Below are positions 7,878 through 46,558 of a DNA stretch of 64,000 bases, one piece after another. The stretch covers positions 26,273-90,272 of the forward strand of contig JAUMVD010000001.1 in the NCBI GenBank assembly GCA_030530285.1. The letters run 5' to 3'. Position numbers and translations under genes: made by a program. Each line of letters begins with the position of its first letter. Position 1 is the first letter of the stretch. The notes beneath the pieces are model-generated. The model did no database searches, was not told where the DNA came from, and saw only the letters and a program-made list of their open reading frames with translations. This DNA comes from Bacillota bacterium (GTDB lineage Bacteria > Bacillota > Clostridia > Peptostreptococcales > Anaerovoracaceae).

Positions 7878-9950
7878 ATGAACAGTTATGGACTCGACAG
7901 GGTGATATCGCCCAAACAGGTATTTCCGGCATCGGCCTGGGAACTGGACAACAGCAGCGAACTAAAGCCGGGAGAAATGCGCATCGGATTAAGACGCGTG
8001 CACGTTGAGAGCACCAGCTTCAGGCAGATCTGCCAGGAGGCGGCCAACGACGAGGATCTGATCAAAGAAAAGATAAAGGATATTGTCATCCGGCGCGGCA
8101 AGCTCCACAATCCCATTACGGATACGGGCGGTCTGTTCTACGGCTTCATCGAAGAGATCGACAGTCGGTACGAAAATGAAAAAGGCCTGAAGGTAGGAGA
8201 TGAGGTGATCTGCAACGCCTCGCTGGCGGGAGTGCCTTTGTTTATCAACAGTATCACTTCTATCGACAAAACATACCCTCAGTTTGAGGCGGACGGGTAT
8301 GCCATCGCGCTGCCCGGCGTGCCCATCATCAAAAAGCCCGAGGGAATGCCCATGGATCTGCTGCTGTTTACCTTCAACGAGTCCGGGACCATATATAAAG
8401 TAGGCAGAGAAGCGGCGGGCAAGAGCCGGTTTGCCATCATCGGCAATAACATGCTCATGTCGCTGCTCTACGGATACACGGTGAGACAGGCGGCAGGACC
8501 TGACGCGGAGGTCTACTGCGTGCTGGACAGAAACACGGACATCACGATGCAGGGCGATGGACTCAATGAGATCATGGGGCAGGTATTCACCCAGGTTTCC
8601 TACCATAACCTGATGAAACCGGTGGCTTGTCTCAGGAGCTTCAGCAAATATCCCGGCATGGATATGGTGGTGAACTGCGCGGATATTCCCGGTGCGGAGA
8701 CGGTCAGCGTGATGGCCACCAAATCCGGAGGGACCGTTGTATTCGCTAACTTCATCAGCAACTATAATATGGCCCTGTATATCACGGAAGCCATATCCAG
8801 AGATATCCGCATCACCTGCGCCGAAGGGTACCTGGAGGAGTATGACGAGTACGACTTCGAGATCGTGAAGGGCATCGCGCCTTACATCGACGGCGCCATG
8901 GTTCCGAGAAACAAGATGAAGCGCAAAGGCTTCCGGTCGGAGACGGACAAGGCGGTCTTCGATCACTACAACCACTACGATATCTCCGTGGCGGAGGATC
9001 TGGTTGCTGTGAGCAAAAAGATGCACGAAGTTCTGGATGAGATCATGAGCGTATCCCGTTATGACTGCAACGTCCTGATCACGGGAGAAACAGGCGTAGG
9101 TAAGGAAAAGGTGGCGAATATCATACAGAAAAACAGCGCCAGGAAAATGCAGCCGTTCGTCAAGATCAACTGCGCGTCCATACCGCCGAATCTGATGGAA
9201 TCGGAGTTCTTTGGTTATGAGAAAGGCGCATTTACAGGAGCAGACGCGAAGGGCAAACGCGGGTATTTCGAAGTTGCGGAAGGCGGCGTCATCTTCCTGG
9301 ATGAGGTGGGGGAACTGCCTCTTGATATCCAGGCCAAGCTTCTCAGAGTCATCCAGGACGGAGAATTCATGCGGGTCGGCGGCACGAAACCGGTCAAGAC
9401 CAACGTGAGGATTTTATCGGCCACCAACAGGGATCTGGAGGAACAGGTGCGGAACAAAGCCTTCCGAAGGGATCTGTATTACAGGTTGAACGTATTCCCG
9501 ATCAATGTGCCGGCGCTGGACGAGAGGAAGGATGATATCCCGCCGCTGGTGGACAATTTCATCAGGAAATACAACGAGAAATTCGGCATCAATAAGTTTA
9601 TGGACGACGATGCCAAGGATTATCTGGCGGCCCAGAGCTGGCCGGGCAACATCAGGGAATTGGAAAATGTGACCCAGAGACTTATGATCTCAAGTCCCAA
9701 CGACATGATCACGCTGGTCGATGTCATGAAAGAGCTGGGAGGAGACCTGATCAGCGCTGCCGATCTGGACGCGCAGGTCAAGCAGCTGGAGGAAGGAGAG
9801 ATTGGCCTGACCAAGGCGGTGGAGTCATTCGAAAAGGCGATCATACAGAACGCCTGCAAGAAATACGGATCCACCAGAAAGACGGCCAAGGCCATAGGAA
9901 TCTCCCAGACGCAGCTGGTGAGAAAAAAGAACAAATACGAAATAGGATGA
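7878..9950 (+). CDS. sigma-54-dependent transcriptional activator with an N-terminal Kdd-like (3,5-diaminohexanoate dehydrogenase-like) domain
   Basis: AAA+ domain with GETGVGKE, GAFTGA, VIFLDEVGEL and RDLYYRLNV. C-terminal Fis-type HTH STRKTAKAIGISQTQLVRK. Residues ~1-345 align by eye along the full length of the Kdd encoded at 10250. Confidence 0.85.
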   Translation: MNSYGLDRVISPKQVFPASAWELDNSSELKPGEMRIGLRRVHVESTSFRQICQEAANDEDLIKEKIKDIVIRRGKLHNPITDTGGLFYGFIEEIDSRYENEKGLKVGDEVICNASLAGVPLFINSITSIDKTYPQFEADGYAIALPGVPIIKKPEGMPMDLLLFTFNESGTIYKVGREAAGKSRFAIIGNNMLMSLLYGYTVRQAAGPDAEVYCVLDRNTDITMQGDGLNEIMGQVFTQVSYHNLMKPVACLRSFSKYPGMDMVVNCADIPGAETVSVMATKSGGTVVFANFISNYNMALYITEAISRDIRITCAEGYLEEYDEYDFEIVKGIAPYIDGAMVPRNKMKRKGFRSETDKAVFDHYNHYDISVAEDLVAVSKKMHEVLDEIMSVSRYDCNVLITGETGVGKEKVANIIQKNSARKMQPFVKINCASIPPNLMESEFFGYEKGAFTGADAKGKRGYFEVAEGGVIFLDEVGELPLDIQAKLLRVIQDGEFMRVGGTKPVKTNVRILSATNRDLEEQVRNKAFRRDLYYRLNVFPINVPALDERKDDIPPLVDNFIRKYNEKFGINKFMDDDAKDYLAAQSWPGNIRELENVTQRLMISSPNDMITLVDVMKELGGDLISAADLDAQVKQLEEGEIGLTKAVESFEKAIIQNACKKYGSTRKTAKAIGISQTQLVRKKNKYEIG

Positions 9951-12638: not shown

Positions 12639-13649
12639 ATGTACCTATTAGAAGAATTATCACAGAAATACAAGAGAATATCTATAGTCGGCATGGCGAA
12701 AAACGCCGGCAAGACTACAGCGCTGAATTACCTTATAGAGGAGGCCATGGACGAAGGCATCGCCCTGGGCGTCACTTCTACAGGCAGAGACGGCGAAGGA
12801 ACAGATGTTGTCACGGGTACTGACAAACCTCGTGTATTTCTGGATACAGACACTATCGTATCGGTGCCAACACAGCTTTATGAGCTGGCAGACGCCGGCC
12901 TGGAGATCGTTAAGATGACTGAATACGGCTCGTCACTGGGGCAGATCATGCTCTGCAGAGTTGTCAGCAGCGGATACGTGCAGGTAGCAGGGCCGGTAAT
13001 CAACGCGCAGCACATCAAGATGTGTGAAGAAATGATCCGGTTAGGTGCCCAGCTGGTGCTTATAGATGGTGCGATAGACAGGAAATCTATCGCGGCACCG
13101 GGGACATCGGATGCGATAATCCTGTCCACAGGAGCGGTTTTATCGAGAAAAATGAGCAGAGTCGTAGAGGAGACGGCGCATACCGTCAACCTCTACCGCC
13201 TGCCTTGTCTCGAGGATGGACGGGAGAGAGAATTATTGACCGGAGAGAGCGAAAATATCCTCCTGATCAGGGATGGGGAACTGGTGGCCCTCGATCTGAA
13301 CACAGGCCTTGGCGCAGGGAGATTCCTGGACGCCAAGATCGATGATAAGGTCAGCCACATCTATGTTCCGGGGGCGTTTACACAAAGCATTGTTTCGGAC
13401 ATCAATCCTAAGAAATTAAAGAACGTCACATTCGTGCTCAAAGATCCTACGAAGATCTTTATCGGAGCTACGATGTGGAATCAGTTCAGAAAAAAGGGAC
13501 TTACGGTAAAGGTGCTCGAAAATATCAATGTTGCAGCGATCACAGTAAACCCCACATCGCCGGGAGGCTATTCGTTCGATCATGAAAGTTTGCTGAACGC
13601 CATGCAGGAAGCGATTCCGGATATACCTGTTCTGGATGTACGTATGTAG
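12639..13649 (+). CDS. P-loop NTPase of unknown function embedded in the kam operon
   Basis: Walker A VGMAKNAGKTT near the N-terminus. Tightly packed between kamA and the MutS-like gene. Confidence 0.6.
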   Translation: MYLLEELSQKYKRISIVGMAKNAGKTTALNYLIEEAMDEGIALGVTSTGRDGEGTDVVTGTDKPRVFLDTDTIVSVPTQLYELADAGLEIVKMTEYGSSLGQIMLCRVVSSGYVQVAGPVINAQHIKMCEEMIRLGAQLVLIDGAIDRKSIAAPGTSDAIILSTGAVLSRKMSRVVEETAHTVNLYRLPCLEDGRERELLTGESENILLIRDGELVALDLNTGLGAGRFLDAKIDDKVSHIYVPGAFTQSIVSDINPKKLKNVTFVLKDPTKIFIGATMWNQFRKKGLTVKVLENINVAAITVNPTSPGGYSFDHESLLNAMQEAIPDIPVLDVRM

Positions 13650-13658
13650 GAGACCGAG

Positions 13659-15296
13659 ATGTCTATAGCTGTAAAGAGACTGGCAAATCAAAAGACAAGA
13701 CGTGAAACAGGGCTGGACTATGTCGTTTCCGCCATGAATCTGCTGACTCCCTTTGGAAGCAAGCAGATCAAAGAGCAGAAGCCGTTTTTCCCGGGGCAGG
13801 AGGGAGCCCTGGAAGAAGAGCTTTTGCGCGTAGAGAAGATGGTTGATACGGCGGAAGCGAACAGCAGAGAAATAGGCGTGCTGCAGGAAACATTCATGAT
13901 GTTAAAGGACAACACCTTCACCATCGAGAGAAGTGAGAATTCGGTGCTGTCCGTCGTAGAGATCTTTGAGATCAAAAATCTGCTGCTGCTGATGGAGAAA
14001 ATCAGAGGCATCAGCGGCAGGATAGAATTGCCTGGCGAATTCGTGCCCGAAGATGTGACCGAGCTGCTGGACGTGCTCGATCCGGGCGGAGATAGGCTCA
14101 ATACCTTTTACATTTATGATTCTTTTTCCGAGAAGCTTGCGGAGCTCAGGAAAGAAAAGAAGCAGATGGACAGGGAAATCAGAGTCAGACAAAAGGCGCT
14201 GAAATCAGAGATCCAGAAAACGTATGGCTTGGTGCTCACACCCAAATTCGATATCACCGTATCGAGGAGCGACGAAGCCGGTATAAAAATGATAGAAGAG
14301 ATTTCCGATTTGACGAAATCGGATGAAGACTATATGTCAGTAACCTACACTCTCGTGCCCGGCGAAGACGTTCAGGAGCTTTTGCGAAAATCGGACGATA
14401 TTTCGGCGGACATTGAGGAAGAAGAGCTGAGAGTGCGGGAAATACTGTCAAAGGAAATCCACAAACATGCAGAACTGCTTCTGGACAATTGCGATCGGAT
14501 CGGCAAGCTGGACATCGTTCTGGCAAAGGCTTTGTACGCCATATCGCATCACTGCGTACGCCCTGAGATCGTCCGGGAGCACGTGGTGGAATTTACGGAC
14601 GGCAGGCATCTGCAGGTAGAAGAGATCATCAAGAAAAAAGGCGGGGAATACTGCCCCGTTAGTATATCTCTAAGTGATGGGGTAACATGCATTACGGGAG
14701 CCAATATGGGGGGAAAGACCATTTCGCTGAAACTCACCGGAATGGTCGCCATCCTGGCTCAGTACGGATATTTCGTCCCGTGCAAAAGCGCGCGGGTAGG
14801 TCTCAGCAATTTCATGCAGATACTGATCGGGGACAGTCAGTCGATCGAGAGAGGACTCTCCAGTTTCGGAAGCGAGATGGAAGAACTGAAGGAGATCATG
14901 GACAACAGCACGGACAGATCGCTTTTGCTCATCGATGAGATCGCCAGCGGAACAAATCCGGTAGAGGGACTGGCGCTCACGAAGAGCATCGTTGACTATC
15001 TCAAAGGCAAGGCGTTCATCTCCCTGATCACCACTCATTTCGAGACGGTGACGGCGGATAAGGACGTCGTCAATATGCAGGTCACGGGACTTGCGAATGT
15101 GGATTTCGACAAACTAAACAGGGAGATCAGGTACGCAAACAGGCGCGAGAGGATCGGGATCATCCAGAAGTACATGGATTACCGCCTGACGCGGGTTGAC
15201 GACGCTGCCGAGATCCCTAAAGATGCCTTGAACATAGCGAAGATGCTGGGCATCGATGACAGCATTATAGAAAAGGCAAAACAGTACATAGTTTAA
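13659..15296 (+). CDS. MutS-family ATPase (domain V only; no mismatch-binding or Smr domain)
   Basis: ITGANMGGKTISLK (Walker A), LLLIDEIASGTNPVEG (Walker B/signature), TTHF. The N-terminal ~300 aa are helical and charged. Confidence 0.75.
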   Translation: MSIAVKRLANQKTRRETGLDYVVSAMNLLTPFGSKQIKEQKPFFPGQEGALEEELLRVEKMVDTAEANSREIGVLQETFMMLKDNTFTIERSENSVLSVVEIFEIKNLLLLMEKIRGISGRIELPGEFVPEDVTELLDVLDPGGDRLNTFYIYDSFSEKLAELRKEKKQMDREIRVRQKALKSEIQKTYGLVLTPKFDITVSRSDEAGIKMIEEISDLTKSDEDYMSVTYTLVPGEDVQELLRKSDDISADIEEEELRVREILSKEIHKHAELLLDNCDRIGKLDIVLAKALYAISHHCVRPEIVREHVVEFTDGRHLQVEEIIKKKGGEYCPVSISLSDGVTCITGANMGGKTISLKLTGMVAILAQYGYFVPCKSARVGLSNFMQILIGDSQSIERGLSSFGSEMEELKEIMDNSTDRSLLLIDEIASGTNPVEGLALTKSIVDYLKGKAFISLITTHFETVTADKDVVNMQVTGLANVDFDKLNREIRYANRRERIGIIQKYMDYRLTRVDDAAEIPKDALNIAKMLGIDDSIIEKAKQYIV

Positions 15297-34291: not shown

Positions 34292-35827
34292 ATGCTGAAA
34301 GAAAAAATTGTTTACCGGGACGAGCTTCCAATTAATGTAATTACAGCCAATATCGAAGAATATCCGATACACTTCCATGATGACATGGAGGTCGTATATG
34401 TTTTGGACGGCAGCATCACGCTCAGGAACGGATATTATACCTACGCACTGAAGCAGGGCGACATCTTTATCCTGAACGACAGAGAAATGCACAGCTTCGA
34501 AAGTACCGGCGAAGACAACATGGTCATGATGCTCCAGATGGATCTGTCATATTTCTCAAGGTACTATGATAATCTGAAGAATAATTTCTTTGTTACCGAC
34601 ATGGAGGATGACAGCGACGAGAGTCTGGACGTTCTTAAGAATATCCTGGCGAGGATCATGATGGAAGTCCTCCAAAAGGGATACGGATACGAACATAAGG
34701 TCATTGAGAGTACCCATAACCTCATCGCCTGCCTCATGTCAGACTTCCAGTATTTCGTGATGGAGGATGGCAAGTTCAAGAACGAATCCAAGAACAAAGG
34801 CAACAAAATCCTGGCCGGAAGGCTCAACCGCATCACAGATTATATGTACGACAACTATAACAGGAAGCTTACGCTCAGCGAGATCGCTGACAGGGAGCAC
34901 CTGAGCATTTACTATCTGTCTCATATCATAAAGGAAGCCACGGGACTCAGCTTCCAGGATCTGCTCAGCTATATCAGAGTGGAAGAGTCGGAGAAGCTTT
35001 TGCTCGGCACGAATAAAAAAATCGGGGCTATCGCTGACGAGACGGGGTTCTCCGCCGTCAGATACTATATCAAGCATTTCGAAAACTGGTTCGGCATGCA
35101 TCCGCTGGAGTACCGAAAGAAATATATCGGCAAGATCATCAGCAGGGAAATCGAAGCCAAATATACCAGATGCAGTCCGGCCAGCATAGAGGAAGCCATC
35201 CGAAGTCAGGTCAAAGGCGTTTATGCCGACTACGCGGATAAACTGAAGATCAAACCGGTCATCGTCGACGTCGATGTTTATGACGATTACGCGGAGGTCA
35301 AAAAAGGCGAGCCTGAGCTGGCGGAAATCATGAACAGAAGCGTCAACAGTATTTTGGCTCAGCCGTATAACACGCTGATGAGCATGGGAGAAAATCTGAT
35401 CGCTTCCGGCAGCAAATATGTAGTAACGACGAAGTGTCAATATCCGGGCGCGCTGACCAGTCTCAGCATTTTGGTTTACAATTTCGACGACAATGTCATC
35501 AAAGCGTTAAAGAGAATCGGAACCAGCAGCGACCTTTTGAGAATCGTGAAAAACTATGAAGGAGAGTCTGAATTTCTTATCAGGTGCACGGGCATGTCAG
35601 GAGAGTTCAGAGTGCTCAGATACAGGCTTGACAGCGACAACATTATTAAGCAAATAGAAGAAAACGGCCGTGAAAAAGAAGAAGAAACGGTACGTGAAAT
35701 GATCATCAACAAAATGCTTACAGAGCCTGCAATCAGCTCCGCCACATACACCAGCTCGGACGCCATGAGCATCAGAAGTATCTTTAAGGGAGTGGGCGCC
35801 GAACTGATCATGATAGACAGCAAATAA
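34292..35827 (+). CDS. AraC-family regulator (cupin + HTH_AraC + long C-terminal extension)
   Basis: Cupin-like N-terminus, AraC HTH LSEIADREHLSIYYLSHIIKEATG...FSAVRYYIKHF, and a ~230-aa C-terminal domain. Confidence 0.8.
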   Translation: MLKEKIVYRDELPINVITANIEEYPIHFHDDMEVVYVLDGSITLRNGYYTYALKQGDIFILNDREMHSFESTGEDNMVMMLQMDLSYFSRYYDNLKNNFFVTDMEDDSDESLDVLKNILARIMMEVLQKGYGYEHKVIESTHNLIACLMSDFQYFVMEDGKFKNESKNKGNKILAGRLNRITDYMYDNYNRKLTLSEIADREHLSIYYLSHIIKEATGLSFQDLLSYIRVEESEKLLLGTNKKIGAIADETGFSAVRYYIKHFENWFGMHPLEYRKKYIGKIISREIEAKYTRCSPASIEEAIRSQVKGVYADYADKLKIKPVIVDVDVYDDYAEVKKGEPELAEIMNRSVNSILAQPYNTLMSMGENLIASGSKYVVTTKCQYPGALTSLSILVYNFDDNVIKALKRIGTSSDLLRIVKNYEGESEFLIRCTGMSGEFRVLRYRLDSDNIIKQIEENGREKEEETVREMIINKMLTEPAISSATYTSSDAMSIRSIFKGVGAELIMIDSK

Positions 35828-35939
35828 GTACAGTAATAAAGCAAATAGCTCATTGCAAACCCCAAGTGAAAGGACTATCATTTAAACAGATTGAATAAAA
35901 TAACACTGATGTAGTTATTAGATTTTGGAGGTAACACTA

Positions 35940-37226
35940 ATGAAATTACTTATTATCGGAGCAGGCGGAGTTGGAACGTCAGCTGCTAAGATCATCCAGA
36001 GAGCTGGAGCAGATGCAGATTGGGCAGAAAAGGTCGTCGTATCAGACTACGATCTGAAGAGAGCTGAGAAAGTTGCTAACGAGATCTGCGGCGGCGGCAA
36101 GTTTATACCTGCACAGATCAATGCTATGGATGCTGAGAGCATCAAGAAAGTGGTAAATGAACACGGCTGCGATTTCGCGATGAACGCATGTGACCCTAGA
36201 ATGAATGCGACTATTTTTGATACATGCCTGGCACTGGGAATCGGATATCTGGATTGCGCTATGACACTGGGAACTGAGCACCCTGAAAAGCCATATGAAC
36301 TGACCAACATCAAGCTCGGTGACTATCAGTTTGCTAAGCAGAAGGAATGGGAAGCTTCCGGCAAGATCGCGATCTGCGGATCAGGTGTTGAACCTGGAAT
36401 GGCAGACGTTTTCGCGAAGTACGCTGCTAAGCACCTGTTCGATAAGATCGACAGAGTTGACGTACGTGACGGCGATAACTACGGAAATACTGATTCCGAC
36501 TTTGGTTTCTCAGTATGGACAACCATCGAAGAATGCTTACAGCCACCTGTAATCTGGGAAAAGAACGAAGAGTTCCCTGAAGGTCACTGGTTCTGCACAC
36601 CTCAGTTCTCAGAGCCTGAAGTATTTAACTTCCCTGGCGGCATTGGCGACGTAGAAGTTGTTAACGTAGAGCACGAAGAAGTACTGCTGGTACCGAGAGA
36701 AATCGATTGCAACAGAGTAACATTCAAGTATGGCGTACCTGCTGATTTCAGAGCTAAGCTGATGGTACTGTTTGAGTATGGTCTCTCAGACAAGAGAACG
36801 AAGATCAAAGTCGGCGACAGCGAGATCACTCCAAGAGATTTCGTATGTAAGGTAATACCTTCACCGGTTGACGCAACGATGACGATGACTGGTAAGGGCT
36901 GCGCCGGTACTTGGGTAACCGGATGGAAAGACGGCAAGTACAGATCAGTATATCTGTATCAGGTCGCTGACAACCAGGAATGCATCTCCAAGTACACTAC
37001 AAACTCAGTCGTTGCACAGACTGCAGTAGGTCCTGTCATCATGATGGAACTCATCGCTAAGGGCATCTGGAATGAAGCCGGAGCATGGGGTCCTGAGCAC
37101 TTCGATCCAGATCCGTTCGTAGAAAGACTCGCGAAGTATGAATTCCCTGCAGGAATCAAGGAAATGGATTCAGAATATGCTGATGAACTGAACGAGAAGG
37201 CATTTCTTGACGCAGTAAGCAAATAA
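35940..37226 (+). CDS. saccharopine dehydrogenase-family NAD(P)-dependent oxidoreductase
   Basis: The ATG at 35940 lies 8 nt after GGAGG. Rossmann loop LLIIGAGGVGTS and a 428-aa length typical of Sacchrp_dh N+C domain proteins. Confidence 0.7.
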   Translation: MKLLIIGAGGVGTSAAKIIQRAGADADWAEKVVVSDYDLKRAEKVANEICGGGKFIPAQINAMDAESIKKVVNEHGCDFAMNACDPRMNATIFDTCLALGIGYLDCAMTLGTEHPEKPYELTNIKLGDYQFAKQKEWEASGKIAICGSGVEPGMADVFAKYAAKHLFDKIDRVDVRDGDNYGNTDSDFGFSVWTTIEECLQPPVIWEKNEEFPEGHWFCTPQFSEPEVFNFPGGIGDVEVVNVEHEEVLLVPREIDCNRVTFKYGVPADFRAKLMVLFEYGLSDKRTKIKVGDSEITPRDFVCKVIPSPVDATMTMTGKGCAGTWVTGWKDGKYRSVYLYQVADNQECISKYTTNSVVAQTAVGPVIMMELIAKGIWNEAGAWGPEHFDPDPFVERLAKYEFPAGIKEMDSEYADELNEKAFLDAVSK

Positions 37227-37351: not shown

Positions 37352-39133
37352 ATGCTTGAGGAAAAGGCAGGGTATCTAAAAGATTTTCCAATCAACATCA
37401 GAGTACTGCATATCGAAAATTACCCGCTCCACTATCACTTTGATCCGGAGTTTATTTATGTGCTCAAAGGCTTCGTGACGCTTAAGTGCGGGTCGAGTAT
37501 ATATAAAATGCAGCAGGGAGATATATTCGTGGTCAATGAGAGCGAGGTCCACGGGATCTATCACTGCTCCACCGACAATGTGGTGCTGATGATACAGATC
37601 GATACGGCATATTTCAGCAAAATGTTCCCCGCCCTCAAGAACAGCGTATACCGAACCCTGAGCAAGGACAGAAACGACGAGAATCTGGTATATCTGCGGA
37701 GCCAGCTTTTGCATGTGACCTTCAATTATCTCAAGCGCTCGCCGGGATATAAGATCGAAGATACGAATCTGATGGAAGACGTGATCACCTTCATGGATAA
37801 ATACTTCGCCACATTCTATTTCGAAGGGCAGACCGTCATGCAGCGAAAGTACGAAAAACCGGATCAGACGGAGCGGCTCAGCAGGATCATCAGCTATCTA
37901 TACGAGCATCACTCCGATAACATCACGCTGAAAGACCTGGCGGACATGGAGTATCTGAGCGAATACTATATCTCGCACCTGATTACGGACGGCACGGGAC
38001 TGAACTTCAGAGAGCTTCTGGCTTTTGCCCGGGTCGAAGAGTCGGAGAAACTCCTGCTGCAAAGCAACGAGAAGGTAAGCGCCATCGCCAAGAAAAGCGG
38101 GTTCAGCACCACGGCGTACTACATCAAGTTCTTCAAGAAATGGTACATGTGCGAACCGGAGGAGTACCGCCGGTCCTACGCGGGGCACATCAAAGGCTTC
38201 GATCTGAAAAAGACGAAGGAGATATCCACCAGCAAGGCGCTGGATCTGGTCACGGAGCTGATCAATTTCCTGTCCTTTGAGTCGGACGAAGAGGTGGGAG
38301 TCAAATTCAGTTATGACGAGGTGAACATAGATCTCAGAGACGCGCCGGAGGAGCCTGCCGTGTTCGGCAAGCCTGTGGAGCTGGGAGGAGACTATCTCAG
38401 AAACAAATACATCATTTACGGCAGTGAATTCATCGCGAAAACGCTGGGCACCGAGCTGTCAGAAGATATCAAACCGTATGTTGAAGGTGAGGGGAATTAT
38501 GTCTGGGACAGCCTGGCGACCATCCCGCATCTGTTCTATAAATTCATGGATCCCGGGATAGATGTCATAAGGGAGAATAACCATATCGATTCCGGGAAAT
38601 TCGATACTCTGCTGGCAGGTGAAAAGGGCATCATCATTTCCGACGAAATAGCCAAACCGGCATTTTACGGATACAGAATATTCAACTCCATGAAAGGAGA
38701 GATCCTGTCGAGAGGCGATCAGTATCTGGTGACGAAAGGCAAGAGCGGCAGGTCGGATCAGATTTCGGTGTTTGCGTTCAATTATGACGACTCCATCGAA
38801 AGACTGTTTGAGAAGGGCGGCAACATCACCCGCGTGCAGAAAACAATCACCGCCTTCAGGGACTCACACACGTACAAGGTGACGATCAAAGGCCTGGAAC
38901 CCGGCACATATGAAATCATCAGGACCGGGCAGAGTCACGGGGATACGATTTTTTCCCACGCTGTCATGGATAACAGCAGACGGCATAAACATACCGAAGA
39001 GGAAATTCTGACTCTGGACGAGGCGACGGTGCCGGATACCGTCATCGAACACAGATACCTGAATGAGGACATCCAGCTGGACATCAATCTGAAGGGGTTA
39101 AGCTATTATTATGTCAGAATTATCAAAAGATAG
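37352..39133 (+). CDS. AraC-family regulator, paralog of 34292..35827 (cupin + HTH_AraC + ~300-aa C-terminal domain)
   Basis: Same architecture and a colinear N-terminus (MLEEKAGYLKDFPINI... against MLKEKIVYRDELPINV...). HTH LKDLADMEYLSEYYISHLITDGTG. Confidence 0.8.
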   Translation: MLEEKAGYLKDFPINIRVLHIENYPLHYHFDPEFIYVLKGFVTLKCGSSIYKMQQGDIFVVNESEVHGIYHCSTDNVVLMIQIDTAYFSKMFPALKNSVYRTLSKDRNDENLVYLRSQLLHVTFNYLKRSPGYKIEDTNLMEDVITFMDKYFATFYFEGQTVMQRKYEKPDQTERLSRIISYLYEHHSDNITLKDLADMEYLSEYYISHLITDGTGLNFRELLAFARVEESEKLLLQSNEKVSAIAKKSGFSTTAYYIKFFKKWYMCEPEEYRRSYAGHIKGFDLKKTKEISTSKALDLVTELINFLSFESDEEVGVKFSYDEVNIDLRDAPEEPAVFGKPVELGGDYLRNKYIIYGSEFIAKTLGTELSEDIKPYVEGEGNYVWDSLATIPHLFYKFMDPGIDVIRENNHIDSGKFDTLLAGEKGIIISDEIAKPAFYGYRIFNSMKGEILSRGDQYLVTKGKSGRSDQISVFAFNYDDSIERLFEKGGNITRVQKTITAFRDSHTYKVTIKGLEPGTYEIIRTGQSHGDTIFSHAVMDNSRRHKHTEEEILTLDEATVPDTVIEHRYLNEDIQLDINLKGLSYYYVRIIKR

Positions 39134-39173
39134 TGCAAGGAAATAAACCAGAATTGCAAGCTGATTATAGAAA
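39134..39173 (+). promoter_or_regulatory. conserved 40-nt operator/promoter-like element, copy A (upstream of the GRE gene)
   Basis: GCAAGGAAATAAACCAGAATTGCAAGCTGATTATAGAAAT aligns without gaps to copies B and C. GCAA half-sites are 21 nt apart, followed by TTATAGAAA. Confidence 0.6.
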
Positions 39174-39176
39174 TGG

Positions 39177-39219
39177 ACCGCGTTTGAAAGTAACATTAAC
39201 TTAAGAGAACGCGGTTTTT
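39177..39219 (+). terminator. terminator-like hairpin between element A and the GRE start codon (AraC terminator or leader attenuator)
   Basis: ACCGCGTT (39177-84) pairs with AACGCGGT (39208-15) across a 23-nt loop, followed by TTTTTC. Confidence 0.45.
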
Positions 39220-39250
39220 CATTGCTTTAGATATAACGGAGGTGTTTGTT

Positions 39251-41623
39251 ATGATGACAGAAAGGGTCGCGAGACTAAAGAAACAGTTTTTATCAGTAAG
39301 GCCTAACATTACACCGGAGAGACTGCTTCTGGCTACGGAAGCATATAAGAAATACGCGGGTGATTCAGTTCCCATCTTCAAGGCGCGGGTCCTGGAGTAC
39401 GTTCTGGATAACCTGAGCATCACCATTCATCCGGAGGAAATGATCGTTGGGGTACCGACGTACAGCCTCAGAGGCGCCAACCTGTTCCCGGAATTCACTT
39501 CCACGGACTGGCTGCTGGAGGAGATACCGGAATTTCCGACGAGGCCGATGGACCAGATCGACGTTACAGAAGAAGACCAGAAAATCATCATCGACTGTCT
39601 GGAAAGCTTCTGGAAGGGCAGAGCCATCGAGGACCTGCTGGCCAGAGAACTGCCGGCTGACGTCAAAGAACTGTTCGATACAGCGGTTATCGATATCGGA
39701 CTGACCAATACGACATCCGGAGAAACGGTTCCGGATTATGTTTCACTGCTTAAGAAGGGGATCAGAGCTTATGCCGAGGAATGCAGGGAAAAAATAGAAA
39801 ACGAGCCGACGGGTACATTCGAGGCGCACGCCAAGATCGATTTCTGGAGAGCGTGCATCATCGTTTGTGAAGCGGTAATCAGGTTTGCCAACAGGTATGC
39901 GGATGAAGCGGAAGCGCAGGCCGCGAAGGAAACGGATCCGAAACGAAAGGCCGAGCTTCTGGTGATCGCGTCGAACTGCAGAAACGTTCCGGAGAATCCG
40001 CCGAGAGGATTCTATGAGGCACTCCAGTTCGTATGGTTCATCCATCTGGTATTCCACATCGAAGGACCTACCACCGCCTGCAGCTTCGGCAGATTCGACC
40101 AGATGCTGTATCCGTATATGGAGATGGATATGAAGAGCGGCATGTTCGATGAGCCGGCATTCCAGGAGATACTGGACTGCTTCTTCCTGAAGTGCGGTGA
40201 GGTTATCGAAGTCAGAGATAAATTCTACTCCAAAGCCTTTGCAGGATTCCCGATGTGGGCGATCATCATGCTGGGCGGACTGGATTCAGAAGGAAACGAC
40301 GCGACAAACAAGCTCAGCTACATGTGTCTGACCGCAGGCGCGGACGTACAGACCGCACAGCCTGTTCTGGCCATGAGAATCAGCGACAAGACGCCGGAGG
40401 ATCTGTTCAGACAGGCGGCTGAGATGATACAGGCCGGCATGGCAAATCCGGGATTCTTCAGTGAATATGGAAATGCCAACGTCATCAGATCCAAGGGCGG
40501 CAGCGAATGGGAGGCCAGAAACTGGTGCATCGTAGGCTGCACGCAGCCGCAGTACGGCGGCGGCGGTACCGACGCTACGCCGGATGCGGGATATGTGAAT
40601 TTCGCAAAGGCTCTGGAACTGGTGCTGCATAATGGCGTGGATCCGGCAACCGGCAAGAAAGTAGGTCTGGAAACGGGAGATCCGACCAAGTTTACTTGTA
40701 AGGAAGACCTGATCGAAGCATCGAAGAAGCAGATCATGTTCCTGTATGGGAAGATCGTAGAAGGCTTCAGGATCATGCAGTGCCAGGCGGCCAGGAGACA
40801 GCCGATGATCTGGGCGTCCCTGACGATGGACGGATGTATCGAAAGCGGCAAATCCGTACAGGAAGGCGGCACCAAGCATAATTCGGCAGGTCTGTTCAGT
40901 ACGGGCACAGCAAATCTGGCAGACTCCATCGTTGCCATCGAGCAGGTCGTATTCAAGGACAAGACCCTGACCATGAAGGAACTCATCGACATCCTGGATA
41001 ACGACTTCGACGGCGAGGAGAGAATCAGACAGCTGCTGCTCAACAAACCGCCTAAGTTCGGAAACGACGACGAATATGTCGACAATATCAATAAGGAAAT
41101 CGTTACTTACGCGGCGAATATCGTGCAGACCTGGGAAGACGCCAGAGGAGGACACTTCGACTTCACGCTGATGTCCCAGTCCATGAACGTGCCGCACGGT
41201 GAGGTTGTAGGTGCGACTCCTGACGGCAGACATGCCGGAGCTCCGCTTAACGACAACGCCTCGCCGATGATGGGCATGGATACCAATGGCCCGACGGCAA
41301 CGATCAAATCCGTAGCCGCGCTGGAACCTGTACACTTCTGGGCAGGAGCACTGTTCAATCTGAGGTTCGATCCTCACGGCGTGCAGGGAGAGAAAGGCAT
41401 ACAGACCATCGAAGGTGTCATCAAGTCATTCTTCGAGGAAGGCGGACTGCATATCCAGATCAACGTCGTTGACGACGCTACGCTGAGAAAAGCGCAGGAA
41501 AATCCGGAAGACTACAGAGGATTGGTCGTAAGAGTTGCCGGTTACATGGCATATTTCACAGAACTTGACAGGAGCGTACAGGATGCGCTCATAGACAGAA
41601 CAGCTCATCTTGGAGGGTGCTGA
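39251..41623 (+). CDS. glycyl radical enzyme (PFL-fold, eliminase-like) with a non-canonical Cys loop
   Basis: The ATG at 39251 lies 8 nt after GGAGG. Glycyl radical motif VVRVAGYMAYF near the C-terminus. Cys loop ARNWCIVGCTQPQYGGGG. Length 790 aa. Confidence 0.9.
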   Translation: MMTERVARLKKQFLSVRPNITPERLLLATEAYKKYAGDSVPIFKARVLEYVLDNLSITIHPEEMIVGVPTYSLRGANLFPEFTSTDWLLEEIPEFPTRPMDQIDVTEEDQKIIIDCLESFWKGRAIEDLLARELPADVKELFDTAVIDIGLTNTTSGETVPDYVSLLKKGIRAYAEECREKIENEPTGTFEAHAKIDFWRACIIVCEAVIRFANRYADEAEAQAAKETDPKRKAELLVIASNCRNVPENPPRGFYEALQFVWFIHLVFHIEGPTTACSFGRFDQMLYPYMEMDMKSGMFDEPAFQEILDCFFLKCGEVIEVRDKFYSKAFAGFPMWAIIMLGGLDSEGNDATNKLSYMCLTAGADVQTAQPVLAMRISDKTPEDLFRQAAEMIQAGMANPGFFSEYGNANVIRSKGGSEWEARNWCIVGCTQPQYGGGGTDATPDAGYVNFAKALELVLHNGVDPATGKKVGLETGDPTKFTCKEDLIEASKKQIMFLYGKIVEGFRIMQCQAARRQPMIWASLTMDGCIESGKSVQEGGTKHNSAGLFSTGTANLADSIVAIEQVVFKDKTLTMKELIDILDNDFDGEERIRQLLLNKPPKFGNDDEYVDNINKEIVTYAANIVQTWEDARGGHFDFTLMSQSMNVPHGEVVGATPDGRHAGAPLNDNASPMMGMDTNGPTATIKSVAALEPVHFWAGALFNLRFDPHGVQGEKGIQTIEGVIKSFFEEGGLHIQINVVDDATLRKAQENPEDYRGLVVRVAGYMAYFTELDRSVQDALIDRTAHLGGC

Positions 41624-42561
41624 TGACAGATAAACTGACTGCTTTCGTGGGAAGCATCCAGAAATTTTCAACCGAAGACGGACCGGGCGTACGGAGCACG
41701 GTATTCCTTAAGGGGTGCCCGCTTAACTGCGCCTGGTGCCATAATCCGGAGATGATTTCTCCGAGCCAGCAGATGATCGTAAGTCCTAAGAAGTGCATCG
41801 GCTGCGGAGAGTGCATCGCCGCGTGCCCGAACGGCGGCATCAAAGTCGGCGAAAACGGACCGCAGATCGACTGGGCGATGTGCGTTGCCTGCGGAGAGTG
41901 TTCGGAGGTATGTTTCGCCAGCGCCATCAGACCGGTGGCACAGGAGATGACCGTAGAGGAAGTCTTTGCCAAAGTGCTTCAGGATAAGGATTTCTATGTC
42001 AACACGGCAGGCGGCGTGACCATTAGCGGCGGAGAGGTGCTGATGCACCACGACTTCGCGAAGGCTTTGATCGAAAAGTGCGCGGCAGAAGACATCAACG
42101 TATGCATCGATACTTCCGGGTACAGCTCGTATGCCGTGCTGGAGGATCTGGCGAATTGCGAGAATGTGGAATTTTTGCTCTATGACATGAAACACATCGA
42201 CAGCAGCGAGCATCTGAAGTATACCGGAGTGGGGAACGAGCTGATCATCGAAAACCTCAGGAAGCTGGCGGCGGACGACCGGCTCCGGGGCAAGATCTGG
42301 ATGAGAATGCCGCTGATGAAGGGAATCAATGACAGCGATGACGTGCTTGCCCGCACCAGAGATCTGTATGAGGAACTCGGTATCGGCAGGCTGTCCTTCA
42401 TGGGGTACCACGATTATGGCAACTCCAAAGCGGAACACACCGGACGCCGGATGGAGAAGTTCGAAGCCCCGTCGGATGAGAGGCTGGATGAAATCAAGGA
42501 AATGTTTGAGTCGATCGGAATGGCTGTTGAGATCACCGGTCGTGAGGAAACTATAGCGTAG
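41623..42561 (+). CDS. glycyl-radical enzyme activating protein (radical SAM with two extra ferredoxin-type clusters)
   Basis: CPLNCAWCHNPE (CxxxCxxC), CIGCGECIAACP and CVACGECSEVC. TGATG overlap with the GRE stop codon. Confidence 0.9.
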   Translation: MTDKLTAFVGSIQKFSTEDGPGVRSTVFLKGCPLNCAWCHNPEMISPSQQMIVSPKKCIGCGECIAACPNGGIKVGENGPQIDWAMCVACGECSEVCFASAIRPVAQEMTVEEVFAKVLQDKDFYVNTAGGVTISGGEVLMHHDFAKALIEKCAAEDINVCIDTSGYSSYAVLEDLANCENVEFLLYDMKHIDSSEHLKYTGVGNELIIENLRKLAADDRLRGKIWMRMPLMKGINDSDDVLARTRDLYEELGIGRLSFMGYHDYGNSKAEHTGRRMEKFEAPSDERLDEIKEMFESIGMAVEITGREETIA

Positions 42562-42577
42562 AAGTAAGGAGGCCAAT

Positions 42578-43372
42578 ATGACACATAAAAACAGAGTTGG
42601 GATAGTTACGGGCGCAGGAATGGGAAACGGCAAAGGAATCGCCGAATGCCTGTGCAAGCAGGGCGTAAAGGTCGCCATCTTTGACATCAGCAAAGTGATG
42701 GAAGAAACCGTGGCGGAATTCAAAGAAAAGGGATATGAAGTCGAAGGCTACTACGTGGACATAAGAGAACATGATCAGATCGATAAGGCGGTAGCCGCAG
42801 TGCTGGAAAAATGGGGCAAGATCGACATTCTGGTAAACAATGCCGGCGTAATGGCCTGCAAGCCGTTCCTGGAAGCCGATGACGCCAACAGAGATTTCCA
42901 TATCGATGTAAATCTGAAGGGTCCGTGGAACATGACCCAGGCGGTTATCCCGAACATGCTGGAGAATCAATACGGCAGGATCGTTTCCATCGCATCCGTC
43001 ACAGGCGCCCACGTCTCCGACGGTGCCGATACGGCGTACGCCCTGACAAAGGCAGGAATCGTAGGTTTCGGCAAGAGTATCGCCATGGAATACATCCGAG
43101 ACGGCATCACTTCCAATGTGGTATGCCCGGGATACTGCAGGACGCCTATGGTCATGCAGGAAGCGCTGGAACAGTTCCCGGACGATCCGGAAGAGTTCTT
43201 CAGACAGCTGGCGCAGAGCCTGCCGATCAAGAGACTTGGAACGCCGGAAGATATTGGCGGTCTGGTGGCTTATCTGACCAGTGATGAGGCAAGCTTCATT
43301 ACAGCGCAGGATATCGTCATTGACGGCGGATGTATTTCTCCTGAAACAGGTCTTGACTGCTTCGAGGATTAA
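42578..43372 (+). CDS. SDR-family oxidoreductase
   Basis: TGAGMGNGKG (TGxxxGxG), NNAG, catalytic S...YALTK. Confidence 0.85.
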   Translation: MTHKNRVGIVTGAGMGNGKGIAECLCKQGVKVAIFDISKVMEETVAEFKEKGYEVEGYYVDIREHDQIDKAVAAVLEKWGKIDILVNNAGVMACKPFLEADDANRDFHIDVNLKGPWNMTQAVIPNMLENQYGRIVSIASVTGAHVSDGADTAYALTKAGIVGFGKSIAMEYIRDGITSNVVCPGYCRTPMVMQEALEQFPDDPEEFFRQLAQSLPIKRLGTPEDIGGLVAYLTSDEASFITAQDIVIDGGCISPETGLDCFED

Positions 43373-43400
43373 TCTTATATTCAAGATAAAACAACAAGAA

Positions 43401-43427
43401 GGGCAGTGCGTATCGCACTGCCCTTTT
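43401..43427 (+). terminator. rho-independent terminator
   Basis: GGGCAGTGCG-TAT-CGCACTGCCC followed by TTTT. Confidence 0.75.
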
Positions 43428-43430
43428 ATC

Positions 43431-43470
43431 GCAAAGAAATCGAATTTTATTGCATGGCGATTATAGAAAA
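43431..43470 (+). promoter_or_regulatory. conserved 40-nt element, copy B (upstream of APC permease 1)
   Basis: GCAAAGAAATCGAATTTTATTGCATGGCGATTATAGAAAA. Confidence 0.6.
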
Positions 43471-45019: not shown

Positions 45020-45025
45020 CTAATA

Positions 45026-45065
45026 GCAAAGAAATTGAATTTCGTTGCAAACTAGTTATAGAAAG
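45026..45065 (+). promoter_or_regulatory. conserved 40-nt element, copy C (upstream of APC permease 2)
   Basis: GCAAAGAAATTGAATTTCGTTGCAAACTAGTTATAGAAAG. Confidence 0.6.
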
Positions 45066-45139
45066 AGTGCTTGTTAATAAGTTATCATAATTGTAGGAAT
45101 TATTTGACTATTTTAAAAAAACAAGAAAAGGAGGTTACA

Positions 45140-46510
45140 ATGGAAGGCAACTTCAAAAAAATGGACATGAAAGTCCGAACCTTATTTGTAATCCTTTTTG
45201 CCAGCGTATGCGCCGGTTGTTTTGGTATGGAGGATATGCCTGGTGCGTCCGGTCCCGGACTTACTTTGGTGATGATCCTGGTAGTTCCTATTATATGGGC
45301 GGTACCGATCGCACTGGCATGCGCAGAGATGGGAGCTACGCTTCCTGTTCAGGGCGGTTATTACATGTGGGTCAGAGAAGCGTTGGGACCGTTCTGGGGT
45401 TACTGTGCCGGATTCTGGCGAACCTGGATTTGGTATCTGAACGAAGGTATCCTGCTCGTACTTGGTCTTGATTATATGGTAGGATTCTTCCACATGAACA
45501 GAGTCATGTACTTAATCGTTGCGGCAATCATTATGGCTCTTATTGCCTGGGTAAATATCATCGGACTGAAAGCAGTCAGCTGGGTATCGGTCGTATTTCT
45601 GATCATGATCATGGTACCGTTTGGATTACTTGTAGTTATTGGCGTATTCCAGATGGATACGAATCCTATGACACCGTTCTTTAATCCGCACGAGAGCGTA
45701 AGTAACGATATCGCATACGCGATCGTCCTTGGTGTCTGGATGTACGGAGCGTTCGAGGGACCTGCAAGTTATGCAGGAGAAGTAAACAACTTCCAGAAGA
45801 TCTTCCCTAAGGCATTGGCACTCACCGTATTTCTGATGACCCTCACGTACTTCCTTCCTATGCTGGTAGGACTTGCGGCTGTAGGCGAATGGGAGTCATG
45901 GAGCTGCTCCGGAGCTGAAGGAGCGATTGATATCGTAGTAGTATGTAATAAGGTTGGCGGCCATGCCCTCGGACTTGCGATGGTTATTTCGGCCATGTTC
46001 TCCAACATCATCATGTGCAGCGATAATATGGCGGCTACGGTAAGAATTCCTGCAATCATCTCCGAAGACGGCCTGGCGCCTAAATTCTTCAGGCACCTGC
46101 ACAAGAAATACAAAACTCCGTCATATTCCATCATCTTCACTTGCCTGCTGTCCTATGCGGTAATATGCTACGGCAAGTTTGACGCGCTGATCGAATTCCA
46201 GACATTTGTATTCTTCTCGACGTATATCATGCTGATGATCGCGCTGATCGCGCTCAGAGTCAAACGGCCTGAATTGCCGAGACCGTACAAGGCGCCGCTT
46301 CCAACGTGGGGACTTGTATGCTACGCGATACCGGTCATCATCATATGCTTCTACTGCATCATCTTCTGTTCCACTGCGGCTAAGGTGGGAGCGATGATAT
46401 TCGGATTCGGAGCGCCTGTATCGTATTTCATCTTCAAGAAGATTTACGGAGGAATCGATGGACCGAATGCGGTGCCTCATGATTTCTCAAATGACAGCCA
46501 CGAAATGTAA
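45140..46510 (+). CDS. APC-superfamily amino acid/amine permease (paralog 2)
   Basis: Trimmed to the ATG at 45140, which follows AAAGGAGG. 456 aa. Confidence 0.8.
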   Translation: MEGNFKKMDMKVRTLFVILFASVCAGCFGMEDMPGASGPGLTLVMILVVPIIWAVPIALACAEMGATLPVQGGYYMWVREALGPFWGYCAGFWRTWIWYLNEGILLVLGLDYMVGFFHMNRVMYLIVAAIIMALIAWVNIIGLKAVSWVSVVFLIMIMVPFGLLVVIGVFQMDTNPMTPFFNPHESVSNDIAYAIVLGVWMYGAFEGPASYAGEVNNFQKIFPKALALTVFLMTLTYFLPMLVGLAAVGEWESWSCSGAEGAIDIVVVCNKVGGHALGLAMVISAMFSNIIMCSDNMAATVRIPAIISEDGLAPKFFRHLHKKYKTPSYSIIFTCLLSYAVICYGKFDALIEFQTFVFFSTYIMLMIALIALRVKRPELPRPYKAPLPTWGLVCYAIPVIIICFYCIIFCSTAAKVGAMIFGFGAPVSYFIFKKIYGGIDGPNAVPHDFSNDSHEM

Positions 46511-46530: not shown

Positions 46531-46558
46531 GGGCGCCGCTTGAAGCGGCGCCTCTTTT
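46531..46558 (+). terminator. rho-independent terminator
   Basis: GGCGCCGCT-TGA-AGCGGCGCC followed by TCTTTT. Confidence 0.7.

Follow-up and report, generated by a model that had tools for sequence, protein, structure and literature searches.

A discrete clade of glycyl radical enzymes with glutamine at the Cys-x-Glu position and an invariant glutamate at the partner position: a candidate eliminase of amino compounds from a Bacillota bacterium

Introduction

Several reactions by which gut microbes affect their host depend on glycyl radical enzymes (GREs), among them the release of trimethylamine from choline, the formation of hydrogen sulfide out of sulfonates, and the conversion of aromatic acids to p-cresol and skatole. 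The described enzymes with which the present one is compared are HplG, HypD, CutC, glycerol dehydratase (GD) and propanediol dehydratase (PD), together with the phenylacetate decarboxylase PhdB. According to a comprehensive review of June 2026, every GRE eliminase and isomerase keeps the Cys-x-Glu (CXE) motif in its Cys loop. The glutamate of this motif (Glu429 of CIE) hydrogen-bonds the C4 hydroxyl group of the substrate in HplG, the side chains of His160 and Glu436 lie 2.5 Å apart in HypD, and His164 of GD is the proposed proton donor to the leaving hydroxyl group. Mutants of CutC and HypD in which the glutamate is changed to glutamine are inactive; Asp278 has been proposed as the acid/base residue of HypD, and the substrate carboxylate is bound in that enzyme by Tyr450 and Thr645. 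In CutC the cationic amine is stabilised by Asp216, and an interaction of Asp216 and Phe395 with the choline cation has been shown. PhdB carries an essential Cys482-x-Gln484, and its variants Q484E, Q484A and Q484L are inactive. Here we describe a GRE, an oxygen-sensitive radical enzyme, encoded in a stretch of 64,000 nucleotides (the window) from a Bacillota bacterium of the Anaerovoracaceae (assembly GCA_030530285.1, contig JAUMVD010000001.1, positions 26,273 to 90,272 of the forward strand), in which the CXE glutamate is replaced by glutamine, and compare the enzyme, its locus and its clade with these systems.

Glutamine in the Cys Loop and Glutamate at the Partner Position

In phmmer alignments against solved structures, Cys430 of the window GRE aligns to the catalytic Cys of HplG, GD, PD and CutC and Gln432 to the Glu of each of them, with a one-residue insertion in the Cys loop that creates a GGG(G) run. 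The same placement of Cys430 and Gln432 was obtained when 142 representative GREs were aligned with MAFFT, and multiple alignment also sets the two residues on the Cys and Glu of HypD. A preliminary description of the window, made from the sequence by eye, had reported the exchange of Glu for Gln and had named a Glu two residues after the Cys in a proper alignment as the finding that would overturn it; a merely misaligned Glu is ruled out, as three independent alignments concur on Gln432. The exchange is also conserved among relatives, with the motifs GC[ITV]QP..GGG and R[VI]AGY present in 119 of the 119 loop-covering sequences among the 120 best homologues (54–94% identity), and Gln432 invariant in all 120 loop-covering sequences of the 121 compared from the CXQ-GGG clade. 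Where the CXE motif of eliminases and isomerases would stand, the window GRE has C-T-Q and the clade C-[ITV]-Q.

Other details of the preliminary description held in part. The Thr that it reported in place of Val after the Cys is present in the window GRE, but the position is variable in the clade (I 82, T 33, V 5); the N-W that it reported in place of D-Y before the Cys is likewise present, but N-W also occurs in HplG (ARNW) and D-W in most of the clade, and the aligned sequences mark N-W as a feature of the branch and not as peculiar to the window GRE. Two of its generalizations did not hold, namely that all characterised eliminases and decarboxylases have GCVE, to which the Cys-x-Gln of PhdB is an exception, and that the CXE Glu is always the essential general base, given the role proposed for Asp278 in HypD.

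The partner position is occupied by Glu158, which aligns to His164 of GD, Asp216 of CutC and His160 of HypD in pairwise and multiple alignment (the HypD alignment being anchored on the verified HypD P0196, with 1427 bits on NF043068) and is invariant in 121 of 121 clade sequences. His and Glu occupy the two dyad positions in 88 of the 142 representative GRE clusters (query excluded), while the combination of Glu and Gln is unique among the 142 to the CXQ-GGG clade, and the arrangement is unprecedented among characterised GREs. The clade breaks the CXE rule of the 2026 review in a specific way: by alignment, the canonical His/Glu dyad appears inverted to Glu158/Gln432, not destroyed, and a carboxylate probably still lies beside the thiyl Cys430, held by the amide of Gln432. 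An invariant Glu158 at this position weakens the case that the enzyme has no base and hence a new chemistry; of the undescribed chemistry put forward in the preliminary description, the loss of the Glu is real and conserved, but a relocated carboxylate would account for it at least as well as new chemistry.

Further pocket positions were observed to be invariant in the clade. Thr275-Ala276 correspond to His281-Ser282 of GD, with an Asp at the Ala276 position in HplG and with Asp278 of HypD falling here; Trp336 corresponds to Tyr339 of GD, Phe395 of CutC and Phe340 of HypD; Asp445 aligns to Asp447 of GD; Tyr448 aligns to Tyr506 of CutC and Tyr450 of HypD; and Ser642-Gln643 correspond to Thr-Gln of HplG, with Thr645 of HypD aligning to Gln643. 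A second cysteine, Cys277, is near-invariant (117 of 121 sequences) and aligns to Ile283 of GD, the neighbour of the substrate-facing Ser282; to judge from strand alternation, its side chain may point away from the pocket. Other pocket-lining residues differ between subclades, with Thr152, Ala337, Asp637 and Leu640-Met641 in the group of the query and Arg152, Glu337, Ser637 and Asn640-Leu641 in the largest clade group, and these differences make several related substrates likely within the clade.

Placement of the Clade

The window GRE falls in the PFL-like division of the GRE superfamily, with a PFL-like barrel (Pfam PF02901, 1–647/647, E 3e-185), a glycine radical domain (PF01228, E 2e-30), an RVxG[FWY] motif together with the loop Cys, and a radical SAM activase. 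Its AlphaFold 2 (AF2) model has a pLDDT of 90.7 and a pTM of 0.91. The RVAGY motif and the 1,2-eliminase layout given in the preliminary description are borne out by the Pfam domains and by a TM of 0.96 between the model and HplG. Among the NCBIfam models, the one cut-off that the enzyme reaches is that of the broad subfamily TIGR01774 (679.4 against 678.2), and all equivalog models fail (scores/cut-offs): HypD NF043068, 568/1100; CutC TIGR04394, 529/1050; HpsG NF048011, 541/1000; HpfG NF048009, 513/1000; PFL TIGR01255, 156/994; IAD, 476/1100, in three pieces; and HPAD, 324/1150. As they fail for the query and for the ten nearest representative clusters alike, assignment to a known family by profile is ruled out, and NCBIfam release 20 (June 2026) holds no matching equivalog for the clade.

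The best solved structure is HplG (612 bits, 39% identity, TM 0.96 to the AF2 model), followed by PD and GD (TM 0.96, 36% identity), and no solved structure nearer than HplG was found in PDB and Foldseek searches. At 50% identity clustering, the clade is represented by one full-length sequence with 1337 bits, the next full-length cluster having 708 bits and 44% identity, and this gap marks the clade as discrete. Placement on the eliminase/isomerase branch is given by TIGR01774, by HplG, GD and PD as the top PDB and Foldseek matches, and by a neighbour-joining tree of the representatives, in which the clade groups with the HplG-like P0127 and the uncharacterised P0121 and P0123. The preliminary description had found no characterised GRE to match the protein and had asked whether it clusters tightly with a characterised clade that also has C-T-Q; no such clade was found, every model of a characterised family having failed.

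The two uncharacterised neighbours in the tree were also inspected. P0123 has a C-V-Q loop, keeps His at the partner position, lacks the GGG insertion and is 41% identical; its cluster (L109–L111, 1–16367) contains three GRE genes of HplG length including P0123, one activase gene, genes for a MutL-like protein, a B12-binding-domain protein, a GntR regulator and a 2-hydroxyacid dehydrogenase, and two P5C reductase genes, and looks like an undescribed pathway of proline/hydroxyproline type. P0121 has CXE and adjoins DAO/FAD-dependent flavoprotein genes of sarcosine-oxidase type and a sodium:solute symporter gene. With such neighbours, the branch looks devoted to amino acids, of proline/hydroxyproline type.

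The clade may already have been characterised under another name, in work that appeared, say, in a journal open to subscribers only, as the discovery of GREs moves fast. This is improbable, given that the June 2026 review keeps CXE universal and has no such enzyme among those it covers, that NCBIfam release 20 has no equivalog and that the nearest structure shares 39% identity. No description of the CXQ-GGG clade was found in literature searches on HplG, ammonia-lyases, hydroxylysine, B12-independent ethanolamine conversion, PhdB, and amino alcohols and polyamines, with few subscription journals covered, and the clade is absent from the discussion in the AARE paper.

A pocket with Gln432 and Glu158 might also serve a chemistry other than elimination, in which a radical α to the carboxylate of an amino acid would lead to decarboxylation, epimerisation or rearrangement, with the neutral Gln432 accommodating the carboxylate, a role proposed for the Gln of PhdB, and Glu158 binding the ammonium group. 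Such a pocket could draw on the inactivity of all three PhdB variants, by which the PhdB Gln is no acid/base residue; on the joint change of Glu to Gln and His to Glu, which suits a zwitterionic head group near the Cys; on the Gly-rich loop insertion, which could form an anion-binding site; and on the near-invariant Cys277. We regard this chemistry as unlikely, though not negligible: the clade stands with HplG and the eliminases, with lower scores for HPAD and IAD than for HypD and the HplG chain; His327, Trp495 and Tyr691 of PhdB are Thr275, Thr443 and Met641 here, as deduced by offset from the Cys; Cys277 may be turned out of the pocket; a carbonyl or imine as product is suggested by the reductases linked to the GRE; and the α-carbon chemistry of free amino acids is normally non-radical.

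Organization of the Locus

The features of the locus are listed in Table 1. The GRE gene starts with an ATG 8 nt 3' of a GGAGG (39238–39242), and the overlap of its stop codon with the ATG of the activase gene (TGATG), as previously described, is real and lies at 41621–41625, the mechanical open reading frame (ORF) of the activase starting with a GTG at 41617. The activase scores 295 bits on TIGR02494 (cut-off 174) and has a CX3CX2C motif and two ferredoxin-like Cys motifs. The radical Gly764, the thiyl Cys430 and the activase are all intact in the unit. The short-chain dehydrogenase/reductase (SDR) gene reported after the activase was located; its product scores 301 bits against a UcpA-like model (cut-off 356), has as best PDB match 6qhe, 'Alcohol Dehydrogenase' (199 bits), and has orthologues of 61–83% identity encoded after the activase in the close subclade. 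The SDR is probably the reductase of the GRE product, or else the maker of the GRE substrate.

Table 1. Features of the GRE locus, in positions of the window.
Feature	Position	Strand	Basis or remark
Long AraC-family regulator, 593 aa (cupin, HTH_18, C-terminal domain of ~300 aa)	37352-39133	+	Pfam
Promoter/operator element, copy 1, 5' of GRE	39132-39173	+	GCAAGGAAAT-N9-TTGCA...ATTATAGAAA
Leader stem-loop and T-run, between element and ribosome-binding site	39176-39219	+	RNA fold -22.5 kcal/mol, z = -3.06
GRE, 790 aa	39251-41623	+	ORF, Pfam, NCBIfam, alignments, AF2 model
SGETV, around Glu158	39716-39730	+	translation confirmed
Glu158	39722-39724	+	GRE key residue
Cys loop GCTQPQYGGGG	40535-40567	+	translation confirmed
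Cys430	40538-40540	+	GRE key residue
Gln432	40544-40546	+	GRE key residue
GGGG 436-439; Asp445; Tyr448; Ser642-Gln643; Gly764		+	further GRE key residues
Glycine radical motif RVAGY, residues 761-765	41531-41545	+	translation confirmed
Radical Gly764	41540-41542	+	translation confirmed
GRE-activating radical SAM enzyme	41623-42561	+	TIGR02494, Pfam Radical_SAM and Fer4 x2
Classical SDR oxidoreductase, 264 aa	42578-43372	+	Pfam adh_short_C2, E 1e-58
Perfect 12-bp hairpin, terminator of GRE-activase-SDR transcript	43399-43425	.	hairpin search
Promoter/operator element, copy 2, 5' of permease 1	43428-43469	+	repeat and pattern search
APC permease 1, 461 aa	43544-44929	+	Pfam AA_permease_2, E 2e-39
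Promoter/operator element, copy 3, 5' of permease 2	45023-45064	+	repeat and pattern search
APC permease 2	45140-46510	+	tandem paralogue, 73% identical to permease 1
Terminator-like hairpin after permease 2	46531-46553	+	hairpin search

The element of about 40 nt that had been proposed to co-regulate the GRE gene with two APC permease genes was recovered as a 42-nt element by repeat search and pattern search. The pattern GCAARGAAAT-N6-12-TTGCA, followed in every copy by ATTATAGAAA, has 3 matches against 0.01 expected, and its presence before all three genes implies that the three transcription units share one type of promoter/operator. An exact-pattern search in 112 collected loci gave no match; a diverged version of the element was seen by alignment upstream of the GRE gene in the two relatives of 90–92% identity, L010 and L029. 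The leader stem is preserved in L010 (~9715–9760) and L029 (~7915–7960), where both of its arms have changed, and the loop, GAAAGTAACAT.AAC, hardly differs between the window, L010 and L029. The stem-loop is absent 5' of both permease genes, an Rfam search of the leader region gave no match, and the structure is possibly a transcription attenuator that also serves as terminator of the AraC gene.

The gene of the APC permease is tandemly duplicated in the window, each copy with its own promoter element, while the 90% identical relative L010 has a single copy; an orthologue of permease 1, 85% identical, stands at the equivalent position there. The likely start of permease 2 is the ATG after an AAGGAGG, the mechanical ORF starting with a TTG at 45071, which abuts the promoter element. 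In L010 the gene immediately before that of the GRE encodes a 72% identical orthologue of the long AraC regulator, and the AraC protein of the window is the probable cognate regulator of the operon.

A saccharopine-dehydrogenase-like gene (35925–37226), which the preliminary description had associated with the unit, was rejected as a core part of it, as the promoter element common to the three transcription units does not precede it and as it is absent from L010 and L029. It follows the gene of a second long AraC (40% identical to the GRE-adjacent one), which is likewise missing from these relatives, and the whole segment of 34292–37226 looks like an independent inserted module. The best PDB relatives of the saccharopine-dehydrogenase-like protein are carboxy(nor)spermidine-dehydrogenase-like, and its NCBIfam score is 163 bits against a cut-off of 800. 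Distantly related Sacchrp_dh-like genes adjoin the GRE gene in L016 and L017, where they are 26% identical to the one in the window, and lie 7 kb downstream in L005, and there may be a loose functional link between the GRE and genes of this kind.

The best reading of the domains, the RVAGY motif, the coupled activase and the AF2 model is that the enzyme is a predicted active GRE. The inactivity of the Glu-to-Gln mutants of CutC and HypD could instead suggest a GRE paralogue that is catalytically dead or has a purely structural role, but this can be given hardly any weight, in view of a motif strictly kept over 54–94% identity along with Gly764 and Cys430, of a dedicated and translationally coupled activase, and of a regulator and transporters of its own.

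Genomic Context across the Clade

A total of 112 loci were collected from genomes and metagenomes, 108 from searches with clade members and 4 from the sister clusters P0123 and P0121, and the 108 clade loci together with the window gave 65 non-redundant loci, in which neighbours were counted within 5 kb of the GRE gene; the counts are lower bounds, many contigs being truncated. The most frequent neighbours were the activase (47/65) and the long AraC, mostly divergent upstream (34/65), followed by the SDR (14/65), NhaC-type transporter (11/65), LysP-like AAT permease (PRK10836, ~520–545 bits; 9/65), APC permease of the window type (8/65), aldo-keto reductase (AKR; 7/65), M20 hydrolase (5/65) and Amidohydro_3 hydrolase (4/65). 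The close subclade (70–92% identity, GCTQP) comes from gut and rumen metagenome-assembled genomes of Bacillota, Candidatus Copromorpha and Lentihominibacter, with the gene order AraC, permease, GRE, activase, SDR; the association of GRE, activase, SDR and APC permease, whose conservation the preliminary description had proposed to check, is a conserved unit among the collected loci. Members of the clade are common in metagenomes of the human gut, the rumen and digesters, with up to 924 sequences per 90%-identity cluster, and a 57% identical member occurs in the cultured Aminipila luticellarii (CP035281), where it adjoins the genes of an AraC regulator, a permease and an AKR as well as that of an activase.

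Paralogous clade members were observed side by side in L036 (8001–~14500, in the order GRE-activase-AKR-GRE-activase), L033 and L022, which is consistent with several substrate specificities in the clade. In five non-redundant loci (L024, L067, L078, L093 and L103), a gene for a CoA-disulfide-reductase-like flavoprotein with a rhodanese domain was found upstream of the AraC gene, and its recurrence may reflect shared ancestry of the genomes. In L025–L027 (~13000–15200), the genes for AKR, GRE, activase and LysP-like permease are followed by a divergent RedAm-like_C gene (hydroxyacid-dehydrogenase/imine-reductase-like) and by EutH, of the ethanolamine transporter family, two genes downstream of the permease and in this lineage only.

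These loci bear on whether the enzyme could be a B12-independent ammonia-lyase of ethanolamine or of a small amino alcohol, the aldehyde being reduced by the SDR or AKR. Besides EutH near the AKR-GRE-activase-permease genes, and the carboxylesterase-like and amidohydrolase genes of some loci, such a function would fit Glu158, Trp336, Thr443 and Tyr448, which stand at the positions of Asp216, Phe395, Thr502 and Tyr506 around the choline cation in CutC and are longer or bulkier than the residues there, as would be expected with a smaller amine; the literature searched yielded no ethanolamine lyase among the GREs. It is nevertheless a doubtful candidate: the nearest relatives act on amino acids, the carboxylate-binding positions of HypD are retained or even reinforced in the window GRE (Tyr448, Ser642-Gln643), the commonest permeases are LysP-like amino-acid permeases, aldehyde dehydrogenase and microcompartment genes are not linked, and EutH is confined to the one lineage.

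Proposed Function

The reading that we favour, to which we assign about an even chance, is that the locus is an AraC-controlled catabolic unit built around an active GRE of an uncharacterised and discrete clade, which belongs to the HplG-like, amino-acid-acting branch of the 1,2-eliminases and isomerases. The GRE would act as a 1,2-eliminase or isomerase on a hydroxylated amino acid, or an amino alcohol, taken up by the cell, and the carbonyl or imine product would be reduced by the SDR. The permeases would bring in this amino compound, cationic or zwitterionic and most likely of one of these two kinds, and the thiyl of Cys430 would abstract hydrogen from a carbon that carries a hydroxyl group or nitrogen or lies next to one. 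Glu158, positioned by Gln432, would handle the proton transfers done elsewhere by the CXE Glu (or by Asp278 in HypD) and would pair with the ammonium group of the substrate, while Tyr448 and Ser642-Gln643 would hold a substrate carboxylate, if present. The vicinal group would then depart as water or amine, the return of the hydrogen atom would yield a ketone, aldehyde or imine, and the SDR (the AKR in other members) would reduce this product with NAD(P)H. HypD offers a precedent: it abstracts hydrogen next to nitrogen and expels a β-hydroxyl group, and a separate reductase acts on the resulting imine.

Several points weigh against this assignment. The inactive Glu-to-Gln mutants of CutC and HypD leave relocation of the base a hypothesis, not a demonstration; the sole characterised Cys-x-Gln GRE is a decarboxylase and not an eliminase; a reductase is adjacent in only about one third of the loci, many contigs being truncated; the transporter type varies between subclades; and, given the differing pocket positions and transporter types, the clade probably covers several related substrates.

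A bolder and more tentative proposal is that the clade catalyses an undescribed GRE reaction, such as the deamination or dehydration, without B12, of a compound with a vicinal amino-alcohol motif via the Glu158/Gln432 dyad, for which ethanolamine, 5-hydroxylysine and an untested isomer of hydroxyproline or hydroxypipecolate are possible substrates. Taken together, the observation made in the preliminary description is confirmed and its interpretation partly supported. If true, the undescribed reaction would make the clade the first eliminase-type GREs without the CXE Glu and would add a route for the use of amine- and collagen-derived nutrients by gut and rumen anaerobes. If the enzyme is active as an eliminase or isomerase on an amino compound, the position of the catalytic carboxylate is not fixed among GRE eliminases, which would alter motif-based function prediction, and a new substrate class would be added to the anaerobic catabolism of amino compounds. 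The clade is a good experimental target, with a cultured host in A. luticellarii.

Comparison with Known Systems

The window GRE resembles HplG in sequence and structure (612 bits, 39% identity, TM 0.96), in its grouping in the neighbour-joining tree, and in the ARNW before the Cys, the Trp at 336, the Ser/Thr-Gln at 642–643, Tyr448 and the DNASPM.G.D loop. HplG differs in having CIE with Glu429, an Asn at the Glu158 position and an Asp at the Ala276 position, and in lacking the GGG insertion; its pathway product is reportedly cleaved by a thiolase, whereas a reductase is linked to the GRE in the window. With GD and PD the enzyme has a common fold (TM 0.96, 36% identity), and Asp447 of GD is kept as Asp445; however, His164, Glu435, Ser282 and Tyr339 of GD are replaced by Glu158, Gln432, Ala276 and Trp336, and the transporters of the window are of amino-acid type.

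CutC is similar in that the Glu158 position is acidic there as well (Asp216), that 336 and 448 have aromatic counterparts and that 443 is likewise a Thr, but it keeps the essential base Glu491, and microcompartment and aldehyde dehydrogenase genes are absent from the window unit. PhdB, the sole characterised GRE with an essential Cys-x-Gln on its Cys loop, has in this respect the counterpart of Cys430-Thr-Gln432, although it is an aryl-acetate decarboxylase, the window GRE has different residues at the further pocket positions mutated in PhdB (as judged by offset from the Cys only), and the profile scores of the window GRE favour eliminases over decarboxylases. In comparison with HypD, His160 and Glu436 are replaced by Glu158 and Gln432 and the position of Asp278 by Thr275/Ala276, whereas Tyr450 and Thr645 align to Tyr448 and Gln643; HypD is also the system to which the proposed chemistry is likened, with an amino acid as substrate, hydrogen abstraction next to nitrogen, loss of a vicinal hydroxyl group, an acid/base residue other than the CXE Glu, and a separate reductase.

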